Shown here: positions 17,956 through 30,252 of the stretch, piece after piece
Position numbering within the stretch: position 1 is the first letter of the stretch
Layout: each line of letters starts with the position of its first letter
IMG/VR virus record: IMGVR_UViG_3300032288_004022
Span: 31,572 to 95,571 of that record
DNA from: a virus
Direction: 5' to 3' (one strand)
DNA length: 64,000 nt
Made by a program: the position numbers and the translations under genes
The notes under the pieces: model-generated
Database searches by the model: none
What the model was told of the DNA's origin: nothing
What the model saw: the letters and a program-made list of their open reading frames with translations, nothing else

Positions 17956-17985
17956 ATGTTTTTAACGCACAAAAAGGAGCCAACT

Positions 17986-19008
17986 ATGAGTGCAATTCGT
18001 GTTTTGCGTGGTGTGTATCGCAATCAGCCTGTGCAAGATGTTTCGTTTACTCTTGTCAAAGGGTTTCAGACTGGTGCCAAAGGCGGGTTTGTTACGGTAA
18101 AAAATGAGGGACAGTTCCCCGGTTTTGCACCCACCATCCGTATTACCATTGACAACATCGCTGACATCGAGTATACTAACGGCATGACACAAGACAATAC
18201 CGTACATTTTGAGAAGCCCGCCCCTGTTGCGGAGTCCGATGAAGAAGCAATGACTCGTATCCGCGAGCGTTTTGAAATCCTGACTGAAATGACCAAGGCC
18301 ACTGTGAGCGGCGACATCCGTGCCATGATTGTGTCGGGGCCCCCTGGCGTTGGCAAGAGCTTTGGCGTTGAAACCGAAATTGAAAAGGCTTGCCTTTTTG
18401 ACAAACTGGCCGGCAAGCGACTGCGTGCCGAAGTTGTCAAAGGCTCGGCTACCCCGATTGGCTTGTTCCAAACCCTGTACAAATACTCGGATGAGAATTG
18501 TGTTATTGTGTTTGACGACTGTGATAGCATTTTGCTGGACGACGTGGCTCTTAACTTACTGAAGGGTGCTCTTGACTCCGGCAAAAAGCGTACCATTTCG
18601 TGGTTGAGTGAGAGCAGTGCTCTGCGCCGCGAAGGTATCCCGGATCGTTTTGAATTCAAAGGCTCGGTGATCTTTATCACCAACTTGAAGTTTGACAAAA
18701 TGAAATCGCAGAAATTGCGTGATCACTTGGACGCACTGCAATCGCGCTGTCATTATCTGGACCTGACCTTGGACACCATGCGTGACAAACTGTTGCGCAT
18801 CAAGCAGATTGCCAAGGACGGTGTGCTGTTTGCAGACTATGACTTTGAAGAAGCTGTGCAAGACGACATCATTGACTTCATGCATGTCAACAAGGATCGA
18901 CTGCGTGAAGTGAGCCTGCGCATGGCGCTGAAGATTGCAGACTTGCGTAAGCTGTCTGTGCTGAACTGGAAGCGCCTGGCAGAAACCACTTGCATGAAGA
19001 CTGCCTAA
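17986..19008 (+). CDS. Early P-loop (AAA-like) ATPase
   Basis: Walker A GPPGVGKS, Walker B IVFDDCD, FITN sensor, ALQSR arginine finger; AAGGAGCC RBS. Confidence 0.85.
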   Translation: MSAIRVLRGVYRNQPVQDVSFTLVKGFQTGAKGGFVTVKNEGQFPGFAPTIRITIDNIADIEYTNGMTQDNTVHFEKPAPVAESDEEAMTRIRERFEILTEMTKATVSGDIRAMIVSGPPGVGKSFGVETEIEKACLFDKLAGKRLRAEVVKGSATPIGLFQTLYKYSDENCVIVFDDCDSILLDDVALNLLKGALDSGKKRTISWLSESSALRREGIPDRFEFKGSVIFITNLKFDKMKSQKLRDHLDALQSRCHYLDLTLDTMRDKLLRIKQIAKDGVLFADYDFEEAVQDDIIDFMHVNKDRLREVSLRMALKIADLRKLSVLNWKRLAETTCMKTA

Positions 19009-20861: not shown

Positions 20862-22331
20862 ATGAAAACGTGTACCATAATATTAAAAGATGAAGTAAAT
20901 ATCCGACTGGAAGGACTAGATCTAGATGCTCGCAAGGCCTTGGTCACGGCTTTTAAATATGATGTACCTTATGCTAGATATCTTCCGGCAGTGAGACTGG
21001 GACGCTGGGACGGAAAGGTCTCGTACTTCCAACTTGGTGGTAGCAGTTATACAAACTTGCTGCCCGAGATTGTTCCCATACTTGAGAAGTTCAATTACGA
21101 CATTGAACTGGATGATCAAAGAGATTACTCCACCACATTTGAGTTTGAACAGGTGCGTGAAGACTCATTTGCACATGTGAAATGGCCCAAAGGACATCCT
21201 GCCGCTGGTGAACCCATCATGATGCGCGACTATCAAGTTGAGATTGTCAACAACTTCTTGGCCAATCCGCAATGCCTGCAGGAAGTGGCCACAGGTGCAG
21301 GTAAAACCATAATGACAGCGGCCTTGAGCAATGCTGTTGCGCCGTATGGACGCTCAATCGTTATTGTGCCCAACAAGAGTCTTGTGACACAGACAGAAAA
21401 AGACTACATCAACATGGAGCAGGATGTGGGTGTGTTCTTTGGCGACAGAAAAGAGTGGGGTCGTACACATACTATTTGTACTTGGCAGAGTTTGAATGTG
21501 CTGTTGAAGAATACCAAGGCCGGGGTTGGTGATTGTACCATTGACGAGTTCCTAGAAGGGGTGGTGTGCGTTATTGTAGACGAAGTACACATGGCCAAGG
21601 CAGATGCGCTGAAAACCTTGTTGACTGGGGTGATGTCTAGAGTGCCAATTCGCTGGGGTTTGACTGGAACCATACCCAAAGAGAAGTTTGAAAGCCAGGC
21701 CCTGTTGGTGGGCCTAGGTCCTGTGATTGGGCGCCTTAGCGCCAACGAATTGCAACAACAAGGTGTTTTGGCCAACTGTCACGTGAATATTGTGCAGTTG
21801 GTGGATCACGTGGAGTACAAAGAGTACCAATCAGAACTCAAATACTTGCTGGAAGAGTCGGGCCGATTGGATACCATGGCTGACCTCATACGCCGAGTAA
21901 ATGAAACAGGTAATACTTTGGTGCTCGTGGACCGAGTGGCCGCAGGACACGCATTAGTAGAACGCCTGGGTGATCGCGCTGTGTTTGTATCGGGCGCAAC
22001 CAAAGCAAAAGACAGACAAGATGAATATGATGAAGTTGCAGACAGCACTGACAAGATTATTGTGGCTACCTATGGTGTTGCCGCTGTGGGTATTAATATC
22101 CCTAGGATTTTTAATCTGGTTCTTATTGAGCCCGGAAAAAGTTTTGTCCGTGTTATCCAGAGCATTGGCCGCGGCATAAGAAAAGCAGAAGACAAAGATC
22201 ATGTTCAAATTTGGGACATTACTAGCACCTGTAAGTTTGCCAAACGACATCTGACCAAACGCAAGCAGTTCTACCGAGAAGCCAACTATCCATTCTCAGC
22301 AGAAAAGTTGGAGTGGATGAAAATTGCTTGA
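20862..22331 (+). CDS. uvsW: SF2 DNA helicase UvsW
   Basis: RDYQ, ATGAGKT, DEVH, GLTGT, QSIGRGIR; GRWDGK N-terminal motif. Confidence 0.92.
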   Translation: MKTCTIILKDEVNIRLEGLDLDARKALVTAFKYDVPYARYLPAVRLGRWDGKVSYFQLGGSSYTNLLPEIVPILEKFNYDIELDDQRDYSTTFEFEQVREDSFAHVKWPKGHPAAGEPIMMRDYQVEIVNNFLANPQCLQEVATGAGKTIMTAALSNAVAPYGRSIVIVPNKSLVTQTEKDYINMEQDVGVFFGDRKEWGRTHTICTWQSLNVLLKNTKAGVGDCTIDEFLEGVVCVIVDEVHMAKADALKTLLTGVMSRVPIRWGLTGTIPKEKFESQALLVGLGPVIGRLSANELQQQGVLANCHVNIVQLVDHVEYKEYQSELKYLLEESGRLDTMADLIRRVNETGNTLVLVDRVAAGHALVERLGDRAVFVSGATKAKDRQDEYDEVADSTDKIIVATYGVAAVGINIPRIFNLVLIEPGKSFVRVIQSIGRGIRKAEDKDHVQIWDITSTCKFAKRHLTKRKQFYREANYPFSAEKLEWMKIA

Positions 22332-22864: not shown

Positions 22865-23212
22865 ATGGAAAACCTAATAGTCAACACAAACGACGTTGGC
22901 GGAGTCGTGGTCAAGGACAACGACACCTACATGCTCAAAGACAACACCACTTTGAAACATCTTGTGCTCAGTAGTACCAAGCTTTATCGTGGGCAGCAGA
23001 CTCGGGGGCACAGACATCAGGGTCAAGAAGAAGTGTATTTCTTTGTTCAAGGACACGGACGCATGATTGTGGGCAACGAAGATAGTGAGCCGTTTCAGGT
23101 AATGCCAGGAGCAATTGTGCTGATTCCCGATGGTGCATTTCACAGAGTGATCAACGACGGTGACATCAACATGATCTTTAACTGTGTGTTTCAAGGCACA
23201 AGGAATCACTAA
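22865..23212 (+). CDS. Cupin domain protein
   Basis: H.H..QEEVYFF..G.G and IPDGAFHRV motifs. Confidence 0.85.
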   Translation: MENLIVNTNDVGGVVVKDNDTYMLKDNTTLKHLVLSSTKLYRGQQTRGHRHQGQEEVYFFVQGHGRMIVGNEDSEPFQVMPGAIVLIPDGAFHRVINDGDINMIFNCVFQGTRNH

Positions 23213-23484: not shown

Positions 23485-23716
23485 AGAACAGGAAGCACAC
23501 AATGAGTGGAACGATGGCCGCACAAGGTGGAAATACAAGACCTTGACTTTGCACGAGGGTGAGCTGACTGACCAACTCACCACACATGGAGTGTTTGGAT
23601 GGGAACTGGCAGCAATGCACCCTGACAAAAGAAACAATTCTTCTGTAAATTGTTTTATTGTGGTAATGAAACGCCCTTTTTGGTTCGAACAGCCGCCGGA
23701 GCCATCCAATGAGTGA
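23474..23716 (+). CDS. DUF4177-like small protein
   Basis: WKYK...L...G..GWEL.....MKRP pattern. Confidence 0.55.
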   Translation: MMPEEQEAHNEWNDGRTRWKYKTLTLHEGELTDQLTTHGVFGWELAAMHPDKRNNSSVNCFIVVMKRPFWFEQPPEPSNE

Positions 23717-24155
23717 TCGACTAAGCATTGCCAATGAAATGCGACAGTTTGACCGCAAGGCAAGATCATTCTATGACGACTTGACTCCAGAAGAGCGCAA
23801 AAAGTTTTCAAACTACTTGATGATACGTTGGGGATCATCTGTGGAAGGATCACGTGAACTACAAGAGTTCTATGTGATTGCCACCAACGAGCGACTGAAC
23901 AAATACTTCTTTGATGTCAGCCGGCATCCCAAACTACAATGGCTCATGGCCACTAGTGTGAGTCCTGGTATGGGCACGCCAAGACATCCGTGGATTGCGC
24001 CAAAGAAAAAAGAAGCAGGACTCAGCGCCAAACGCAAGGCCTTGATGGCCATGTATCCCACCTACAAAGATGATGAGATTGATGTCATGGCGCAAATAAC
24101 AACTCAAAAAGAAATTGACGCATACAACCGAGCTGCGGGCAACGACAAGAAATGA
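23709..24155 (+). CDS. Clamp loader small subunit-like (T4 gp62-like)
   Basis: FSNYLMIRW, N..LN, HPKLQW, R.PWIAPKKK pattern; replication context. Confidence 0.55.
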   Translation: MSDRLSIANEMRQFDRKARSFYDDLTPEERKKFSNYLMIRWGSSVEGSRELQEFYVIATNERLNKYFFDVSRHPKLQWLMATSVSPGMGTPRHPWIAPKKKEAGLSAKRKALMAMYPTYKDDEIDVMAQITTQKEIDAYNRAAGNDKK

Positions 24156-24826
24156 CATTCACGTGCGAGTTTTGCAAAAAAGAATTTGCTAGAGAAACGT
24201 CAATAGCAGTTCACATGTGTGAGCCCAAACGCAGACGCTTGGCTCGAGATGAACCCGGAGTGCGCATGGGTTTCCAAGCCTACATTCGATTCTATGAGAC
24301 CATGCAAGGCAGTGCAAAAAACAAAACACACGATGATTTTTGTGAAAGTTCATACTACCGGGCATTTGTGAAATTTGGAAACTATTGTGTAAACACCAAT
24401 GTTGTTGCACCTCAACGTTTCATGACCTGGCTGCTGAAAGCACAAAAGAAAATTGATCACTGGTGCAGTGACAAAGTTTACACAGAATACTTGATTGAAT
24501 ACCTGCGTGTGGAAGCAGTGGACGATGCCCTGGCCCGTGCAATAGAACACAGCATGCGTTGGGCAGAAGAAACAGGTAACCCTGCACATGACTGGATGCG
24601 GTATGGCAACACCAATAGTCTATGTTATGCTGTCACAGCCGGACGCATAAGTCCCTGGGTGATTTACAATTCAGAATCAGGACAAAAGTTTCTAAGCGAA
24701 CTCAGCACAGAACAAGTAGCCATGGTATGGCCCTACATTGATAGTGACGCCTGGCAAAAAAAGTTTGTTAACTACCCAGCAGATCAAGAGTACGTGAAAG
24801 ATATATTAAACAAGGCAGGATGGTAA
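24152..24826 (+). CDS. Hypothetical protein with an N-terminal zinc finger
   Basis: CEFC...F......HMC. Confidence 0.7.
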   Translation: MTFTCEFCKKEFARETSIAVHMCEPKRRRLARDEPGVRMGFQAYIRFYETMQGSAKNKTHDDFCESSYYRAFVKFGNYCVNTNVVAPQRFMTWLLKAQKKIDHWCSDKVYTEYLIEYLRVEAVDDALARAIEHSMRWAEETGNPAHDWMRYGNTNSLCYAVTAGRISPWVIYNSESGQKFLSELSTEQVAMVWPYIDSDAWQKKFVNYPADQEYVKDILNKAGW

Positions 24827-24827
24827 C

Positions 24828-25175
24828 ATGATTAGAAACATCACAGCAGGCCTGGGCATTCACATTTCAGGCAATAATTACAGCACACCTTACGTTGACA
24901 TGGCTCGACCCAGTGCGGGCATGGTTCGATGCAACGGATCAAGTATTGAAGTATACGATGGATCAACCTGGTTAATGCTGAGTTCAAATATTCCACAGAT
25001 TGAACTAGACGGAGTGACACAGGAAGCTATTCAGTGGGTTCGGCGTAAAATGGAAGAAGAAAAACGAATGTTGGAGTTGGCAAAAAAACATCCAAGTGTA
25101 GCAGATGCATTGGCAGCGGTGACTCATGCTGAAGAACAAGTTCGAATTGTGGCGGCATTGGTAGACACAGCATGA
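24828..25175 (+). CDS. Hypothetical protein
   Basis: 115-aa coupled ORF. Confidence 0.7.
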   Translation: MIRNITAGLGIHISGNNYSTPYVDMARPSAGMVRCNGSSIEVYDGSTWLMLSSNIPQIELDGVTQEAIQWVRRKMEEEKRMLELAKKHPSVADALAAVTHAEEQVRIVAALVDTA

Positions 25176-25723
25176 GTGCAGACATTGACATTGACTTTGC
25201 CAACAGAGAAACTGTGTTGAAATTGATTCAGCATGTTCCTGCACGACAAAGCAACGGAAGACGTCACAATTCTGGTGTGTATGTCACAGATATTCCTGTA
25301 GACCCTGTAAATGGCTGTGCAGCCATAGACTATGAATCAGCCGAACAGCGCGGCTACTTCAAACTGGACTTTTTGAACATGAGTGTGTATCAGTTGATTC
25401 GTGATCAACAGCACTATGACGAAATGTTAAACACAACACCTCCATGGTCAAGACTGTGGACAGATGGACCTTGGGCCTCTCAACTGGTACACGTGGGCAA
25501 TTATACAGACTTGCTACGAATGATGAAACCAGATTCGATACCCAGGATGGCTGCTTTTATCTCAATCATTCGCCCGGGCAAAGCACATCTACAAATGAAA
25601 CCCTGGGCCGAAGTATTTGCCACGGTATGGGACGGCGATGACTCACAGGGCTACACATTTAAGAAAAGCCACGCAGTTTCCTACGCGGCTCTTGTGGCCT
25701 TGCACATGAATCTCACCAACTGA
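25172..25723 (+). CDS. Miniature DNA polymerase III alpha (DnaE)-like protein
   Basis: DIDIDF, HNSGVYV, GYFKLDFL, IRPG, GYTFKKSHAVSYA in DnaE order within 183 aa. Confidence 0.75.
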   Translation: MSADIDIDFANRETVLKLIQHVPARQSNGRRHNSGVYVTDIPVDPVNGCAAIDYESAEQRGYFKLDFLNMSVYQLIRDQQHYDEMLNTTPPWSRLWTDGPWASQLVHVGNYTDLLRMMKPDSIPRMAAFISIIRPGKAHLQMKPWAEVFATVWDGDDSQGYTFKKSHAVSYAALVALHMNLTN

Positions 25724-25724
25724 T

Positions 25725-26102
25725 TCAGTCCATTCTTCGCACCAGCGTGATTGATTTGCGTTTGGATTTTTTTCGCACAATGTCCAGCAAACTGCATGCC
25801 GGACCGTGCAGGATTTCTAGATCTTTGTTGACAAAAGTGCGTAAGGTGTAGCGGAACTGTTCCCAGTCATTGCGCAGGAATATGTTGATGGGGATTGAGC
25901 GATTGCTCTCCCACCACCATGTGCTGGCCAGTTCTAAAAACAGAATCTTGGAATTCTGATCCACCACAGTCCCAAAATCGTAGATCGTGGTCACAATGTC
26001 ATCTCTGTTTTGCACAATGCCCACGTATTCTGTGTTGGCGTACACACAGAGTGTGATAAAGGGATATTTTTCTGTCAATTTTTCAAATATATTGTTACCC
26101 AT
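25725..26102 (-). CDS. Hypothetical phage protein
   Basis: 125-aa ORF, WWWESNRSIPINIFL. Confidence 0.7.
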   Translation of the reverse strand: MGNNIFEKLTEKYPFITLCVYANTEYVGIVQNRDDIVTTIYDFGTVVDQNSKILFLELASTWWWESNRSIPINIFLRNDWEQFRYTLRTFVNKDLEILHGPACSLLDIVRKKSKRKSITLVRRMD

Positions 26103-26191
26103 GCCGCGTCTATTTTAATTCTTACTAAATATAGGTGTAGTTCGCGATACTGGAAATATCCAACTACTCTATGATTGAAAGGAATCACAGC

Positions 26192-26710
26192 ATGACTACT
26201 TATACCAGAAACAGTCCGCCGGTTGGATACTATGTATACGCTTACCTGAGAGAAGATGCCACGCCTTACTACATTGGAAAAGGCACAGGATCACGTGCAT
26301 GGGCAGATCATAATTTAATCGCTGTTCCACCAAACAACAGAATAGTAATAGTTGAACAAAATCTAACAGATCTTGGTGCCCTAGCGATTGAAAGACGACT
26401 AATACGCTGGTACGGCAGAAAAAATATTAAGACAGGAATTTTACGAAATTTCACAGACGGAGGAGATGGATCTGAAGGAAGAATAACGTCGGACACCACA
26501 AAACAAAAAATCACTAGTGCAAAATCTGGCAAGAAACGAACAGATACTGTTTGGAACAAAGGTGTTAAGTATGGCCTCGAAATTAAGCGTAAACTTGATA
26601 TTTCAGGATTGGCAAAAGGACAGGGGTGGAACAAGGGAAAATCACTAAGCGAAGAGCATAAAGCAAACCTCAAGAAGGCATGGGAACGACGCAAGGCAAC
26701 CGCTAAATAA
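26192..26710 (+). mobile_element. Free-standing GIY-YIG-like homing endonuclease with NUMOD3-type C-terminal repeats
   Basis: YVYAY...YYIGKG...R, E..LI..YG, L.N.TDGGDG, WNKG repeats, SEEHKANL. Confidence 0.8.
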
Positions 26711-26713
26711 TAG

Positions 26714-27784
26714 ATGTATTCAACTACAGTATATCTATACCAACAAATTGTCCGGGTGCTCTTGATAGACACCAGCGGCGGTTATTTTACAAAAAGGTAC
26801 GACCCAGTGTACGCAAAACAACTAACTATCAACAAGGGAGTAGACAACGTCATACTCTTTGAATTTATCAATCAAGACCAAAAGCCTGTGAACATTGCAG
26901 GTTCAAGTTTTGTTTTTCGTGTGGTAAATCAAGCCGGAGACGAACTCTTGATCACCAAGCCCATGGAAATATTGAGTTCGACCCTGGGCAGAGTCAAGGT
27001 GGTTCTCAACAACGAAGACACCATCAATATCCAAGCACAGCCTGCCAGTTACAGCATACAACGCACAGCCGGCAACTATGTGCAGGCAGCATATACCGAT
27101 GCCAACTCGCAAGCACGAGCAGATTGTAACATTGTGGATTCGGTGTTGCCGCAACATATACCGGCCGCGGAATGCACGGTGCCTGACATGTATGGAAAAA
27201 ACAATTACTTTGGAGTGGGCCCAACACAATGGCCAGATTGGGCATTGACTCCACAGCCACAAAACGCCATTCAAATGACCGAATTCTACTCCAGTTACAT
27301 GCCCACCAACGGTGCAAGTTTGACCACAGTCAAGTATGATCTTGTGACCTATACTGGTACTGTAAAAGTACAGGCCGCACAAAACTACGAATCAGTTTGG
27401 TATGATGTAACAGAGTCAAGACAGTATCTCAGTGAGACTGTGAGCGATTATTTCAATGTTGTGGGATTCCATCCCTTGTTACGCCTGGCGTTCAACAACT
27501 CCATTGGTTACGGTGCTCAAGCCAATGTTGTGGTTTCTAACGGAGTGGTGACTTCGATCAACATAACCAATGCTGGTGTGCAATATGTTGCACCACCATT
27601 TATCCAAATCTTGGGCAACGGTGCGGGAGCCCGAGCAACCTGTACAATTGATCCCAACGGTGGTGTGGCATCGGTAACAATCACCAATGGTGGTTCCGGA
27701 TATTTGCCAATTCAATTTCAAAGCAACATATCTGCCACCGCACTTTTTACCAATGGTTTGGTCCAAAACGTTCAATATCGTTGA
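26714..27784 (+). CDS. Probable virion structural protein
   Basis: TAAATA at 26704-26709; beta-rich; C-terminal V.SI.ITN.G.GY repeats. Confidence 0.6.
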   Translation: MYSTTVYLYQQIVRVLLIDTSGGYFTKRYDPVYAKQLTINKGVDNVILFEFINQDQKPVNIAGSSFVFRVVNQAGDELLITKPMEILSSTLGRVKVVLNNEDTINIQAQPASYSIQRTAGNYVQAAYTDANSQARADCNIVDSVLPQHIPAAECTVPDMYGKNNYFGVGPTQWPDWALTPQPQNAIQMTEFYSSYMPTNGASLTTVKYDLVTYTGTVKVQAAQNYESVWYDVTESRQYLSETVSDYFNVVGFHPLLRLAFNNSIGYGAQANVVVSNGVVTSINITNAGVQYVAPPFIQILGNGAGARATCTIDPNGGVASVTITNGGSGYLPIQFQSNISATALFTNGLVQNVQYR

Positions 27785-27815: not shown

Positions 27816-28805
27816 ATGCTTGACATCCTTGCTTATCTGCCTGCCAAAAGAAAACCCAGCCCTCAAGGCTGGCTGAGTTTCAATGCAGTTTGTTGTCAGC
27901 ACAATGGACAAAGTCCAGACCGCCGCGGACGTGGTGGCATCAAGGTCACAGAATCGGGTTGGAGCTATCACTGCTTCAACTGCTCTTATACTGCCAGTTT
28001 CACACTCGGACGAACACTCAGCTTCAAGGCACGCAGACTTCTTGGGTGGATGGGTGTGCCAGACAATGAGATTGAAATGCTCAATCTTGAAAGCCTACGT
28101 CATCGCAACATGCACGGCATCCTGGAAGATCGTCAACGTGTTGCCAACATAGTTTCAGGAATTGAGTTTGCGGAGTCAGATGACTTCCCGCCATACACAG
28201 AAGTGGTCACACCTGAATTTCCTTTGTATTGGAATTATATTCGTCAGCGTCGAGTGCCCGAAGACTTTCCAGTGATGACATCGATCAAAACTGATGGTGC
28301 AAATTGGACTAGACCCTATGTGTTGATTCCGTTTACATATGACAATCAAGTAATAGGCTGGACTGCTAGATTTTTAGATAACAAGATTCCCAAGTATATC
28401 AATCACAGTCAACCCGGCTATGTGTTTGGCACAGATCTGCAACAGCCCGACTGGCGATATGTGATTGTCACAGAAGGCATTTTTGATGCACTCAGCATTG
28501 GTGGACTTGCACTGATGCACAACACCATCAGCGATGGCCAAGCAAAACTAATTCGCAGTCTGGGTCGAGAAGTCATTGTTGTGCCTGATCAGGACCTGCC
28601 CGGTACTGAATTGATTGATCGTGCAGTTGAACTAGGATACAGCGTGAGCATTCCGGCCTGGCCCGATCATGTCAAGGATGTCAACGATGCCGTGATAGAA
28701 TATGGTCGACTTGGAGCCTTGCTAACTATAATGGCAGCACGAGAAACCAGCCGAATTAAAATTGAAATAAGGAAGAAGCAACTTGTTAAAAGAATACGGA
28801 CTTGA
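27816..28805 (+). CDS. DNA primase (T4 gp61-like)
   Basis: Zn-binding CC...HCFNC; TOPRIM EGIFD, PDQD, KDVND. Confidence 0.88.
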   Translation: MLDILAYLPAKRKPSPQGWLSFNAVCCQHNGQSPDRRGRGGIKVTESGWSYHCFNCSYTASFTLGRTLSFKARRLLGWMGVPDNEIEMLNLESLRHRNMHGILEDRQRVANIVSGIEFAESDDFPPYTEVVTPEFPLYWNYIRQRRVPEDFPVMTSIKTDGANWTRPYVLIPFTYDNQVIGWTARFLDNKIPKYINHSQPGYVFGTDLQQPDWRYVIVTEGIFDALSIGGLALMHNTISDGQAKLIRSLGREVIVVPDQDLPGTELIDRAVELGYSVSIPAWPDHVKDVNDAVIEYGRLGALLTIMAARETSRIKIEIRKKQLVKRIRT

Positions 28806-30252
28806 TGTCCAACGACTGTTTCTAGAAATGATGTTGGAGGACGCACAAAGTTATGTGCGTGTTCAAAACATCTACAACCCGCAGAACTTTGATAGAAGTT
28901 TGAGACCTGCCGCTGAGTTTGTCAAAGAACACAGCGACAAGTTCAAGACCATGCCGGATCGCGCACAGATTGCGGCTGCCACAGGCATCAAACTACAGTC
29001 TGTGCCGGACTTGAACGAGGGGCACTTTGACTGGTTCATGAACGAATTTGAAGCATTTACCAAACGTCAAGAACTAGAACGTGCAATTTTGAAATCTGCA
29101 GACTTGCTGGAAAAAGGCGACTTTGAACCAGTTGAAAAACTCATCAAAGATGCAGTGCAAATATCACTCACCAAAGACATGGGCACAGACTACTTTGCTG
29201 ACCCTGCAGCTCGCATCAACAAGTATTTCAACTCGGGCGGCCAAGTATCAACGGGCTGGCCGCAACTGGACAGATTGCTGTATGGTGGATTCAGTCGTGG
29301 TGAGCTCAACATCTTTGCAGGCGGATCGGGTTCAGGTAAATCCTTGGTCATGATGAACATTGCACTGAACTGGTTACAACAAGGATTGAGTGGGGTGTAC
29401 ATTACACTGGAACTGTCAGAAGAACTCACAAGTTTACGAACAGATGCCATGTTGACCAATATGAGCACCAAGGACATTCGTCGAGACATTGACACAACAG
29501 AACTCAAGGTCAAACTTGTGGCCAAGAAGTCTGGACAGTATCGTGTGAAAGCACTGCCGGCACAAAGCAACATCAATGATATTCGCAGCTACATCAAGGA
29601 AGTACAGATTCAAACAGGAATCCGTGTGGACTTTATCATGGTGGACTATCTGGACTTGTTGATGCCGGTGAGTGCCAAGGTTTCGCCCAATGACCTGTTT
29701 GTGAAAGACAAGTATGTTTCGGAAGAACTACGTAACTTGGCCAAAGAGCTAGGGTTGTTGATGGTTACTGCGTCGCAGTTGAACCGTAGTGCAGTGGAAG
29801 AAATTGAATTTGACCACAGCCATATTTCAGGTGGTATCTCCAAGATTAACACAGCAGACAACGTGTTTGGTATTTTTACAAGTCGTGCCATGAAAGAGCG
29901 CGGCAAGTATCAGATCCAGTGCATGAAGAGTCGTAGTTCAACAGGTGTTGGGCAAAAGATTGACCTGGAATACAATATTGAAACCATGCGTATCACAGAC
30001 GAAGGCGGCGATGAAGGGACAGGTTACCAGAAGCCACAAAGCAGCATCATGGATTCAATCAAGGCTCGGAGTCAGGTCAAGACTGCCGATACCACAGAAG
30101 ATAGCACACCTACTCAGTGGGAAAAGCCGATTGGTGGAACTCATGCATGGGACAAACCAATGGCCAAACTTGATGACAGCCCAAAAGTAACAGCAGATGT
30201 TCAAAGTGCAAAACTAAAACAATTGTTAGGACAAATTAGATCATCACAATGA
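28783..30252 (+). CDS. Replicative DnaB-like helicase (T4 gp41-like)
   Basis: GGSGSGKS, TLELSE, VDYLDL, TASQLNR, KSR. Confidence 0.92.
   Translation: MLKEYGLDVQRLFLEMMLEDAQSYVRVQNIYNPQNFDRSLRPAAEFVKEHSDKFKTMPDRAQIAAATGIKLQSVPDLNEGHFDWFMNEFEAFTKRQELERAILKSADLLEKGDFEPVEKLIKDAVQISLTKDMGTDYFADPAARINKYFNSGGQVSTGWPQLDRLLYGGFSRGELNIFAGGSGSGKSLVMMNIALNWLQQGLSGVYITLELSEELTSLRTDAMLTNMSTKDIRRDIDTTELKVKLVAKKSGQYRVKALPAQSNINDIRSYIKEVQIQTGIRVDFIMVDYLDLLMPVSAKVSPNDLFVKDKYVSEELRNLAKELGLLMVTASQLNRSAVEEIEFDHSHISGGISKINTADNVFGIFTSRAMKERGKYQIQCMKSRSSTGVGQKIDLEYNIETMRITDEGGDEGTGYQKPQSSIMDSIKARSQVKTADTTEDSTPTQWEKPIGGTHAWDKPMAKLDDSPKVTADVQSAKLKQLLGQIRSSQ

Follow-up and report, generated by a model that had tools for sequence, protein, structure and literature searches.

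A 183-residue phage protein as the probable second half of a split, minimal C-family DNA polymerase

Group 2.2 jumbo phages probably possess (we put the probability at about 80%) a minimal C-family DNA polymerase made of two small proteins encoded far apart, which would act as an auxiliary to their family B replicase. One of the two, hereafter called the C-unit, is the putative metal- and template-binding part of a split Pol III alpha. It is the 183-residue product of an ORF at 25,172–25,723 (plus strand) of the window, the 64,000-nucleotide stretch analysed here, which corresponds to bases 31,572–95,571 of a 95,571-bp IMG/VR contig with a CheckV completeness of 27%. The other, the N-unit, is a protein of about 170–180 residues that was found in relatives of this phage.

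In the proposed mechanism, the C-unit would supply the palm strands carrying D4, D6, D66 and K64, together with cut-down fingers (RPG and KKSH motifs), and the N-unit would supply helices and a GVGRGSS loop to hold the incoming nucleotide by its triphosphate. As the cut passes through the catalytic fold, the two units are expected to assemble into one joint active site of the Pol-beta fold. Alongside the family B replicase, the pair may add dNTPs in short patches and with poor processivity during replication or repair. With no thumb and none of the known parts that hold DNA or the clamp, the pair is not assured of templated DNA synthesis.

Motifs and missing parts of the C-unit

Four motifs of the C-unit, all encoded on the plus strand, could be matched to residues of E. 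coli Pol III alpha. DIDIDF (residues 4–9, 25,181–25,198) corresponds to the metal-binding strand, in which D4 and D6 (and D8) are equivalent to E. coli D401 and D403 (and D405). KLDFL (residues 64–68, 25,361–25,375) contains K64 and D66, equivalent to K553 and D555, the latter being the third catalytic carboxylate. RPG (R134-P135-G136, 25,571–25,579) is equivalent to R639-P640-G641 in the fingers, and KKSH (K164–H167, 25,661–25,672) to N757-K758-S759-H760. KKSH is directly followed by AVSYA, the KKSH..SY pattern covering residues 164–171.

The motifs were located in the E. coli K-12 DnaE sequence, where GPGRGS starts at position 359, FERFLN at 388, DFDVDF at 401, KFDFL at 553, RPG at 639 and KSH at 758, and their order is identical in the 183-residue protein. 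This bears out an earlier note on this DNA, made from the sequence alone, which had reported a DnaE-like motif order along with an ATGA coupling to the upstream gene. The coupling is found in gcATGAgt, where the ATG of the C-unit overlaps the TGA of the ORF at 24,828–25,175. All intervals between motifs are shorter in the C-unit than in E. coli DnaE: 60 versus 152 residues from DxD to KxD, 70 versus 86 from KxD to RPG, and 31 versus 119 from RPG to KSH. A comparison of the C-unit family profile with the single E. coli DnaE sequence by hhalign paired residues 52–137 with 541–642 at 67% probability, a result that served for residue mapping and not as proof of homology.

Relative to E. coli alpha, the C-unit lacks about 92 residues between DxD and KxD (the thumb region), about 88 from the fingers segment that links RPG to KSH, the PHP domain, and everything beyond position 776, including the clamp-binding, OB and tau-binding parts. 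The assignment of the first of these intervals to the thumb reportedly follows domain limits set by Lamers et al. in 2006. The start of the C-unit coincides exactly with the DxD strand, and neither the GRGS loop nor the preceding palm elements are included. To our knowledge, the GS loop holds the triphosphate in all Pol-beta-fold transferases. The split point, which we place after the helix that follows the GS loop and before the strand bearing the first two carboxylates, would fall inside the catalytic core, and we infer from this position that neither the C-unit nor the N-unit is catalytic by itself. The description of the protein in the earlier note as a miniature C-family core is accurate insofar as the three catalytic carboxylates are present on a palm and fingers fragment, but the core is incomplete.

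Family identity and predicted structure

The C-unit is matched over residues 3–181 by the PHROGs family phrog_11778, labelled "DNA polymerase" (E = 5.2e-52), and the full-length DnaE profile phrog_405 weakly matches residues 150–181 at profile positions 777–809. Neither a search of the 183-residue protein against Pfam (no family at E ≤ 1, below Pfam thresholds) nor a sequence search against PDB chains (nothing at E ≤ 10) returned a match, and recognition of the C-unit therefore depends on PHROGs, profiles and structure. Homologues are widespread. They were found in 6504 metagenomic clusters (90% identity) and, by tblastn, in 96 jumbo-phage records, 95 of which were matched over at least 80% of the length; some of those in phage records are labelled "DnaE-like DNA polymerase III alpha".

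The AlphaFold2 model of the C-unit, obtained from an alignment of 75 diverse homologues, has a pLDDT of 96.2 and a pTM of 0.88, and places strands at residues 5–9 and 65–69, in the DIDIDF and KLDFL regions, respectively. In a Foldseek search with this model, the best 16 PDB matches were all C-family polymerases. Alignment with VIA-align gave Z scores of 6.0–9.3 to Pol III alpha and PolC, with 178–182 of the 183 residues aligned, the best unrelated chain reaching a Z of 3.2. The comparison with Pol III alpha suggested in the earlier note thus returned C-family polymerases only. The aligned spans were 399–776 in E. coli alpha, 460–833 in Taq alpha and 970–1291 in PolC. The exclusive structural match to C-family polymerases, the E value of phrog_11778 and the 6504 clusters place the identification of the C-unit far beyond chance. 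On the predicted structure, the C-unit is the second half of a Pol-beta-type palm plus a reduced part of the fingers.

Conservation and selection

Residues D4, D6, K64, D66 and P135 are invariant in the 75 homologues, which share approximately 30–65% identity; in the same set, conservation of D8, R134, K164 and H167 is 90% or higher. All nine residues are invariant in 63 close relatives. The median Nei-Gojobori dN/dS ratio, calculated for the 41 IMG/VR relatives with dS < 2, is 0.093 (range 0.067–0.151). The length and the ends of the C-unit are kept over thousands of metagenomic clusters.

These data bear on the idea that the C-unit is a decaying remnant of a full-length dnaE gene, or a protein that keeps the fold and has lost catalysis. 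The C-unit covers only one third of a normal Pol III alpha and goes unrecognised by Pfam, as a remnant might. Against this stand the low dN/dS ratio, the invariance of the catalytic residues in close and distant homologues alike, the constant length and ends of the protein, and the lack of frameshifted DnaE remains in the surroundings. The last point had been made in the earlier note and held over the whole contig, as searches with phrog_405, PF07733 and the N-unit were empty outside the ORF; nor was there any of the decay among homologues that the note had named as a possible refutation. Judged by conservation, pseudogene status is excluded and the remnant reading effectively refuted, and we assign it next to no probability.

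E. coli H760 has been proposed, from modelling and genetics, to act as a steric gate against ribonucleotides (PMC8485763). Conservation of the equivalent H167 suggests that the enzyme containing the C-unit uses dNTPs.

The N-unit, a distant partner

Searches with the DnaE profile gave two separate matches in each of four complete relatives. The first is the C-unit homologue (profile positions ~578–809); the second, at positions 360–437, is an ORF of 169–177 residues, the N-unit. The two genes are 31–224 kb apart. The N-unit maps at 97.5 kb and the C-unit homologue at 321 kb in Sinorhizobium phage Phosso, at 188 and 144 kb in Pseudomonas phage PA5oct, at 240 and 271 kb in Escherichia phage PBECO4, and at 241 and 58 kb in Agrobacterium phage Atu_ph07. 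All four phages also encode a family B polymerase.

PF07733 (DNA_pol3_alpha) is present on the N-units of the relatives. These proteins feature the GVGRGSS loop, contain the sequence ...VWGVGRGSSVASYVLFLIG... and end in ...LDxxEFL(N/K/E). The terminal FDEFLN corresponds to FERFLN at 388–393 of E. coli alpha, approximately 8 residues before D401, and the C-unit starts at DIDIDF. Since the end of the one and the start of the other correspond to adjoining DnaE positions, the two products abut exactly.

The N-unit and the C-unit have nearly the same distribution. By tblastn, 98 phage records contain the N-unit and 96 the C-unit, and the counts per genus are nearly equal. Records with the C-unit and with the N-unit number 34 and 34 for Escherichia, 11 and 11 for Pseudomonas, 11 and 10 for Klebsiella, 8 and 8 for both Salmonella and Erwinia, 4 and 4 for both Xanthomonas and Yersinia, and 2 and 2 for both Agrobacterium and Cronobacter. 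The additional N-unit matches include Bacillus phage records with 27.8–32.9% identity over about half of the query, one of which bears the annotation "DNA polymerase III alpha subunit". In metagenomes, the N-unit is as abundant as the C-unit, with at least 7989 clusters in its family.

The earlier note had proposed a search of the rest of the genome for other DnaE pieces, PHP and PolB, and none were found on the 95.6-kb contig, a result of little weight for the phage as a whole given a completeness of 27%. Over its whole length, phrog_405 matched only inside the ORF at 25,172–25,723 (positions ~578–821), and PF07733 matched nothing. On the same contig, neither a six-frame hmmsearch nor the pattern G.G[RK]GS detected an N-unit, and no PHP or family B polymerase sequence was present. 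In a close relative, a 142.9-kb IMG/VR contig (L051) whose C-unit is 84% identical, an N-unit bearing the same motifs lies at 125,219–125,440, approximately 96 kb downstream of the C-unit. The same spacing would reach about 58 kb past the end of the contig analysed here. Judged by its relatives, the phage probably has both an N-unit and a family B polymerase.

Gene neighbourhood

The C-unit gene belongs to a conserved replication module, which starts with an AAA+ ATPase gene (17,956–19,008). The upstream anchor of the module is a UvsW-type SF2 helicase (20,862–22,331, plus strand), identified by ResIII, DEAD and Helicase_C domains, a weak UvsW_N domain and phrog_16 (E = 3e-76). Several small genes follow, and then a gene for a 224-residue C2H2-like protein (24,152–24,826, plus strand). 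This protein belongs to phrog_11058 (E = 9e-57), a family of unknown function, matches zf-C2H2 at only E = 0.053, and is labelled "putative C2H2-type domain-containing protein" in the ESM Atlas. Between it and the C-unit is a 115-residue ORF (24,828–25,175, plus strand) that has no Pfam or PHROG family and is not part of DnaE; a small ORF is not kept at this place in all relatives.

Downstream of the C-unit are a convergent 125-residue ORF (25,725–26,102, minus strand) assigned to phrog_11637, of unknown function, a virion-protein-like gene, and the two downstream anchors, a DnaG-type primase (27,816–28,805) and a DnaB-type helicase (28,783–30,252), both on the plus strand. The latter two genes were recognised through phrog_47 and phrog_19 and through Toprim and DnaB_C domains. 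The same order of the module is observed in Phosso, PA5oct, PBECO4 and Atu_ph07, in which a gene for a protein of 117–133 residues occupies, on the opposite strand, the place of the phrog_11637 gene. Two genes downstream of the C-unit, the module contains an inserted endonuclease gene of the GIY-YIG/NUMOD3 type.

The earlier note had read the C-unit as either a minimal nucleotidyltransferase or one piece of a split replicase, perhaps completed by two neighbours, the C2H2-like protein at 24,152 and a clamp-loader-like protein at 23,709. It is very improbable that the 183-residue protein is self-sufficient, or that these neighbours complete it. Such a reading could appeal to the very high confidence with which the protein is predicted to fold alone, to the synteny of the neighbours in distant relatives and the overlap of the genes, and to one weak ESM-Atlas lead for the protein at 23,709, which falls in clusters with 11% of members carrying the T4 gp62-type clamp-loader family. 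However, the GRGS loop and the initial elements of the palm, which every C-family polymerase has and which the N-unit also carries, are absent from the C-unit. Comparison with Pfam and PHROGs revealed no resemblance of the proteins at 24,152 and 23,709 (the latter in phrog_11758, again of unknown function) to DnaE or to the Pol-beta fold. It is the N-unit that co-occurs with the C-unit across some 96–98 phage records, and in rare cases the two are joined in a single natural protein. The split-replicase part of the earlier reading is retained; a stand-alone enzyme without the GRGS loop is not, and the missing part would be the distant N-unit instead of either neighbour.

Natural single-chain fusions

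An exhaustive search of representative sequences identified a 375-residue protein (P0186) in which residues 190–373 match the C-unit. The first half is an N-unit, joined to the C-unit by a linker of approximately 10 residues (...IKEFIKDNKEGIYNIADFDIDT...). Just three clusters of fused proteins were found, 375–376 residues long, 78–81% identical to one another and derived from ENA and Logan assemblies; in IMG/VR, a search for close relatives of the fusion gave none. The fusion of the two units is real but rare.

The AlphaFold2 model of the fusion has a pLDDT of 75.8 and a pTM of 0.61, and the pLDDT of the GRGS loop is below 50. The model was built on an alignment with few C-unit rows, in which the N-unit rows are slightly out of register at their ends, and this probably lowered its confidence. 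A joint MAFFT alignment with many rows of both units was discarded, as N-unit rows were laid over the C-unit half. When the model was compared with C-family polymerases, 285–295 residues were aligned with Z scores of 10.3–18.3, and residues 72–375 corresponded to 270–773 of E. coli alpha. Z scores did not exceed 3.3 with the other Pol-beta-fold transferases compared, namely Cid1, Rel and poly(A) synthase. The correspondence to DnaE 270–773 implies that, in the model, the N-unit and the C-unit together make up the Pol III alpha palm and a portion of its fingers.

It is conceivable, though unlikely, that the two units form a catalytic enzyme other than a polymerase, which would tail DNA or RNA ends without a template or carry out a specialised step at primer ends or in repair. 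The loss from the C-unit of the thumb, of the larger part of the fingers interval and of everything past E. coli position 776 would fit such a role, as would the family B replicase already present in these phages. In contrast, the fingers motifs that have been retained are specific to C-family polymerases and include the histidine equivalent to E. coli H760, and the predicted structure resembles C-family polymerases (Z up to 18) but not tailing enzymes. The location of the C-unit gene also argues for the minimal polymerase, since within a conserved replication module it is flanked by the UvsW helicase gene on one side and by the primase and DnaB genes on the other.

A more specific version of the polymerase reading is doubtful. 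It holds that the two-chain enzyme, of about 360 residues, is an active template-directed polymerase, the smallest of family C, which would extend the primers synthesised by the neighbouring DnaG-type primase before the family B replicase takes over. The rare single-chain fusions would be ready-made material for testing a two-chain polymerase.

Should the pair be active, it would be a minimal C-family polymerase with a bearing on the origin of Pol III, and a possible enzyme scaffold. The pair suggests that the bacterial replicase can have its catalytic fold pared down to approximately 360 residues and cut through the active-site sheet while under strong purifying selection, and that this reduced fold, in two genes, has been kept in thousands of phage lineages. 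If the minimal polymerase is confirmed, it would also provide a phage parallel to the division of labour between DnaE and PolC in Firmicutes and a working model of the ancestral Pol III core.

Comparison with known systems

Bacterial DnaE and PolC enzymes (E. coli, 2HNH; Taq, 3E0D; G. kaustophilus PolC, 3F2B) have in common with the C-unit the three carboxylates and the lysine, as well as the RPG and KSH motifs of the fingers in the same order, and the structural alignment spans the whole phage protein. They differ in size, bacterial Pol III alpha having about 1160 residues and the C-unit 183, equivalent to E. coli positions ~399 to ~776. Moreover, the GRGS half of the palm, which is part of the same chain in bacterial Pol III alpha, is found on a separate polypeptide in the split phage enzyme.

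In cyanobacteria, DnaE is encoded as two full-size halves with intein pieces, which are spliced into one chain. As in the phages, a DnaE-type polymerase is obtained from two distant genes; however, the phage cut lies inside the palm and leaves no room for intein halves. An intein-mediated split was rejected for the phage pair, given that the N-unit ends in ...LDxxEFL(N/K/E), the C-unit starts with M-x-x-DxDxDF and the linker of the fusions has approximately 10 residues. Recent disruption of a single gene by the nearby homing-endonuclease-like gene was likewise rejected, since the cut point is identical in very distant phages and the two halves stand tens to hundreds of kb apart.

The closest system is the split, minimal Pol III alpha of group 2.2 jumbo phages, which has already been described computationally by Iyer, Anantharaman, Krishnan, Burroughs and Aravind (Viruses 13:63, 2021; PMC7824862). 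According to that paper, group 2.2 includes Atu_ph07 and consists mostly of phages of gammaproteobacteria, and the split enzyme accompanies a family B polymerase, with which it may cooperate in the synthesis of one strand or in repair. PF07733 has been reported as a signature of one cluster of marine jumbo phages (Weinheimer and Aylward 2022, PMC9123017). Both halves are annotated as DnaE-like or DNA polymerase III alpha in recent GenBank records. The C-unit gene is, in short, already known as a computational prediction and is also annotated in GenBank. A literature search for biochemical work on the assembly or polymerase activity of a split mini-DnaE enzyme found none.

Added here are the residue-level mapping, the selection measures, the structure models, the rare fusions and, for a close relative, the distance of 96 kb between the two units; the 375–376-residue fusions are not mentioned in the available part of the description by Iyer et al. 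2021. The C-unit shares 38–44% identity with its counterparts in PA5oct, Phosso, Atu_ph07 and RaK2/PBECO4-like phages, and the gene order UvsW helicase, C-unit, primase and DnaB is shared. The group 2.2 C-unit likewise holds only the Mg2+-binding and template-binding part, and nothing essential differs between the two systems, the copy analysed here belonging to a lineage of uncultured phages with high abundance in metagenomes.

The N- and C-units of the polymerase

The polymerase unit (25172-25723, plus strand) corresponds to the C-terminal half (C-unit) of a split miniature Pol III alpha. The partner N-unit is a separate protein in complete relatives, and examples are found at 1195-1725 in L008 and at 1189-1725 in L099. 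Both units occur on one natural chain in the metagenomic proteins P0186, P0391 and P0392, which are 375-376 residues long and feature a linker of approximately 10 residues between the N-unit and the C-unit. Fused miniature Pol III alpha proteins are restricted to these three clusters, defined at 90%, and a search of IMG/VR for the fused form found none. The first ~70 residues of the N-unit (residues 1-70 in P0186), for which Pol III alpha has no alignable counterpart, form a small extra domain, the modelled structure of which is of low confidence (pLDDT 42-66).

Genes upstream of the polymerase unit

Downstream of the UvsW-type helicase region and ahead of the polymerase unit lies a gene encoding a 115-residue cupin-domain protein (22865-23212, plus strand; Cupin_2, E=7e-11). 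The 148-residue protein encoded at 23709-24155 (plus strand) matches phrog_11758 and has no match in a Pfam search. An ESM Atlas feature search provided a lead for this protein to a cluster with 11% of its members carrying PF16790 (Phage_clamp_A), the clamp-loader subunit of the T4 gp62 type; the score of this lead is 0.91.

Genes downstream of the polymerase unit

Downstream, a 125-residue ORF matching phrog_11637 (25725-26102, minus strand) is convergent with the polymerase unit, and the stop codons of the two genes are one base apart. Four very distant jumbo phages, Phosso, PA5oct, PBECO4 and Atu_ph07, each retain a gene of 117-133 residues at this position, with its orientation also conserved. 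In the 356-residue virion-protein-like product encoded at 26714-27784 (plus strand), the C-terminal ~70 residues match phrog_2885, phrog_701 and others, a repeat shared by large virion proteins and proteins of the baseplate wedge. The gene lies within the replication module, and the genes at the equivalent position in relatives carry virion structural protein annotations.

Between the conserved convergent ORF and the gene for this virion-like protein is a 179-residue homing-endonuclease-like ORF (26171-26710, plus strand), which matches phrog_314 (E=6e-7) and phrog_15526 (E=6.5e-25) and shows a weak match to NUMOD3. This ORF looks like a mobile insertion into the replication module, since no gene occupies this position in Phosso, PA5oct, PBECO4 or Atu_ph07.
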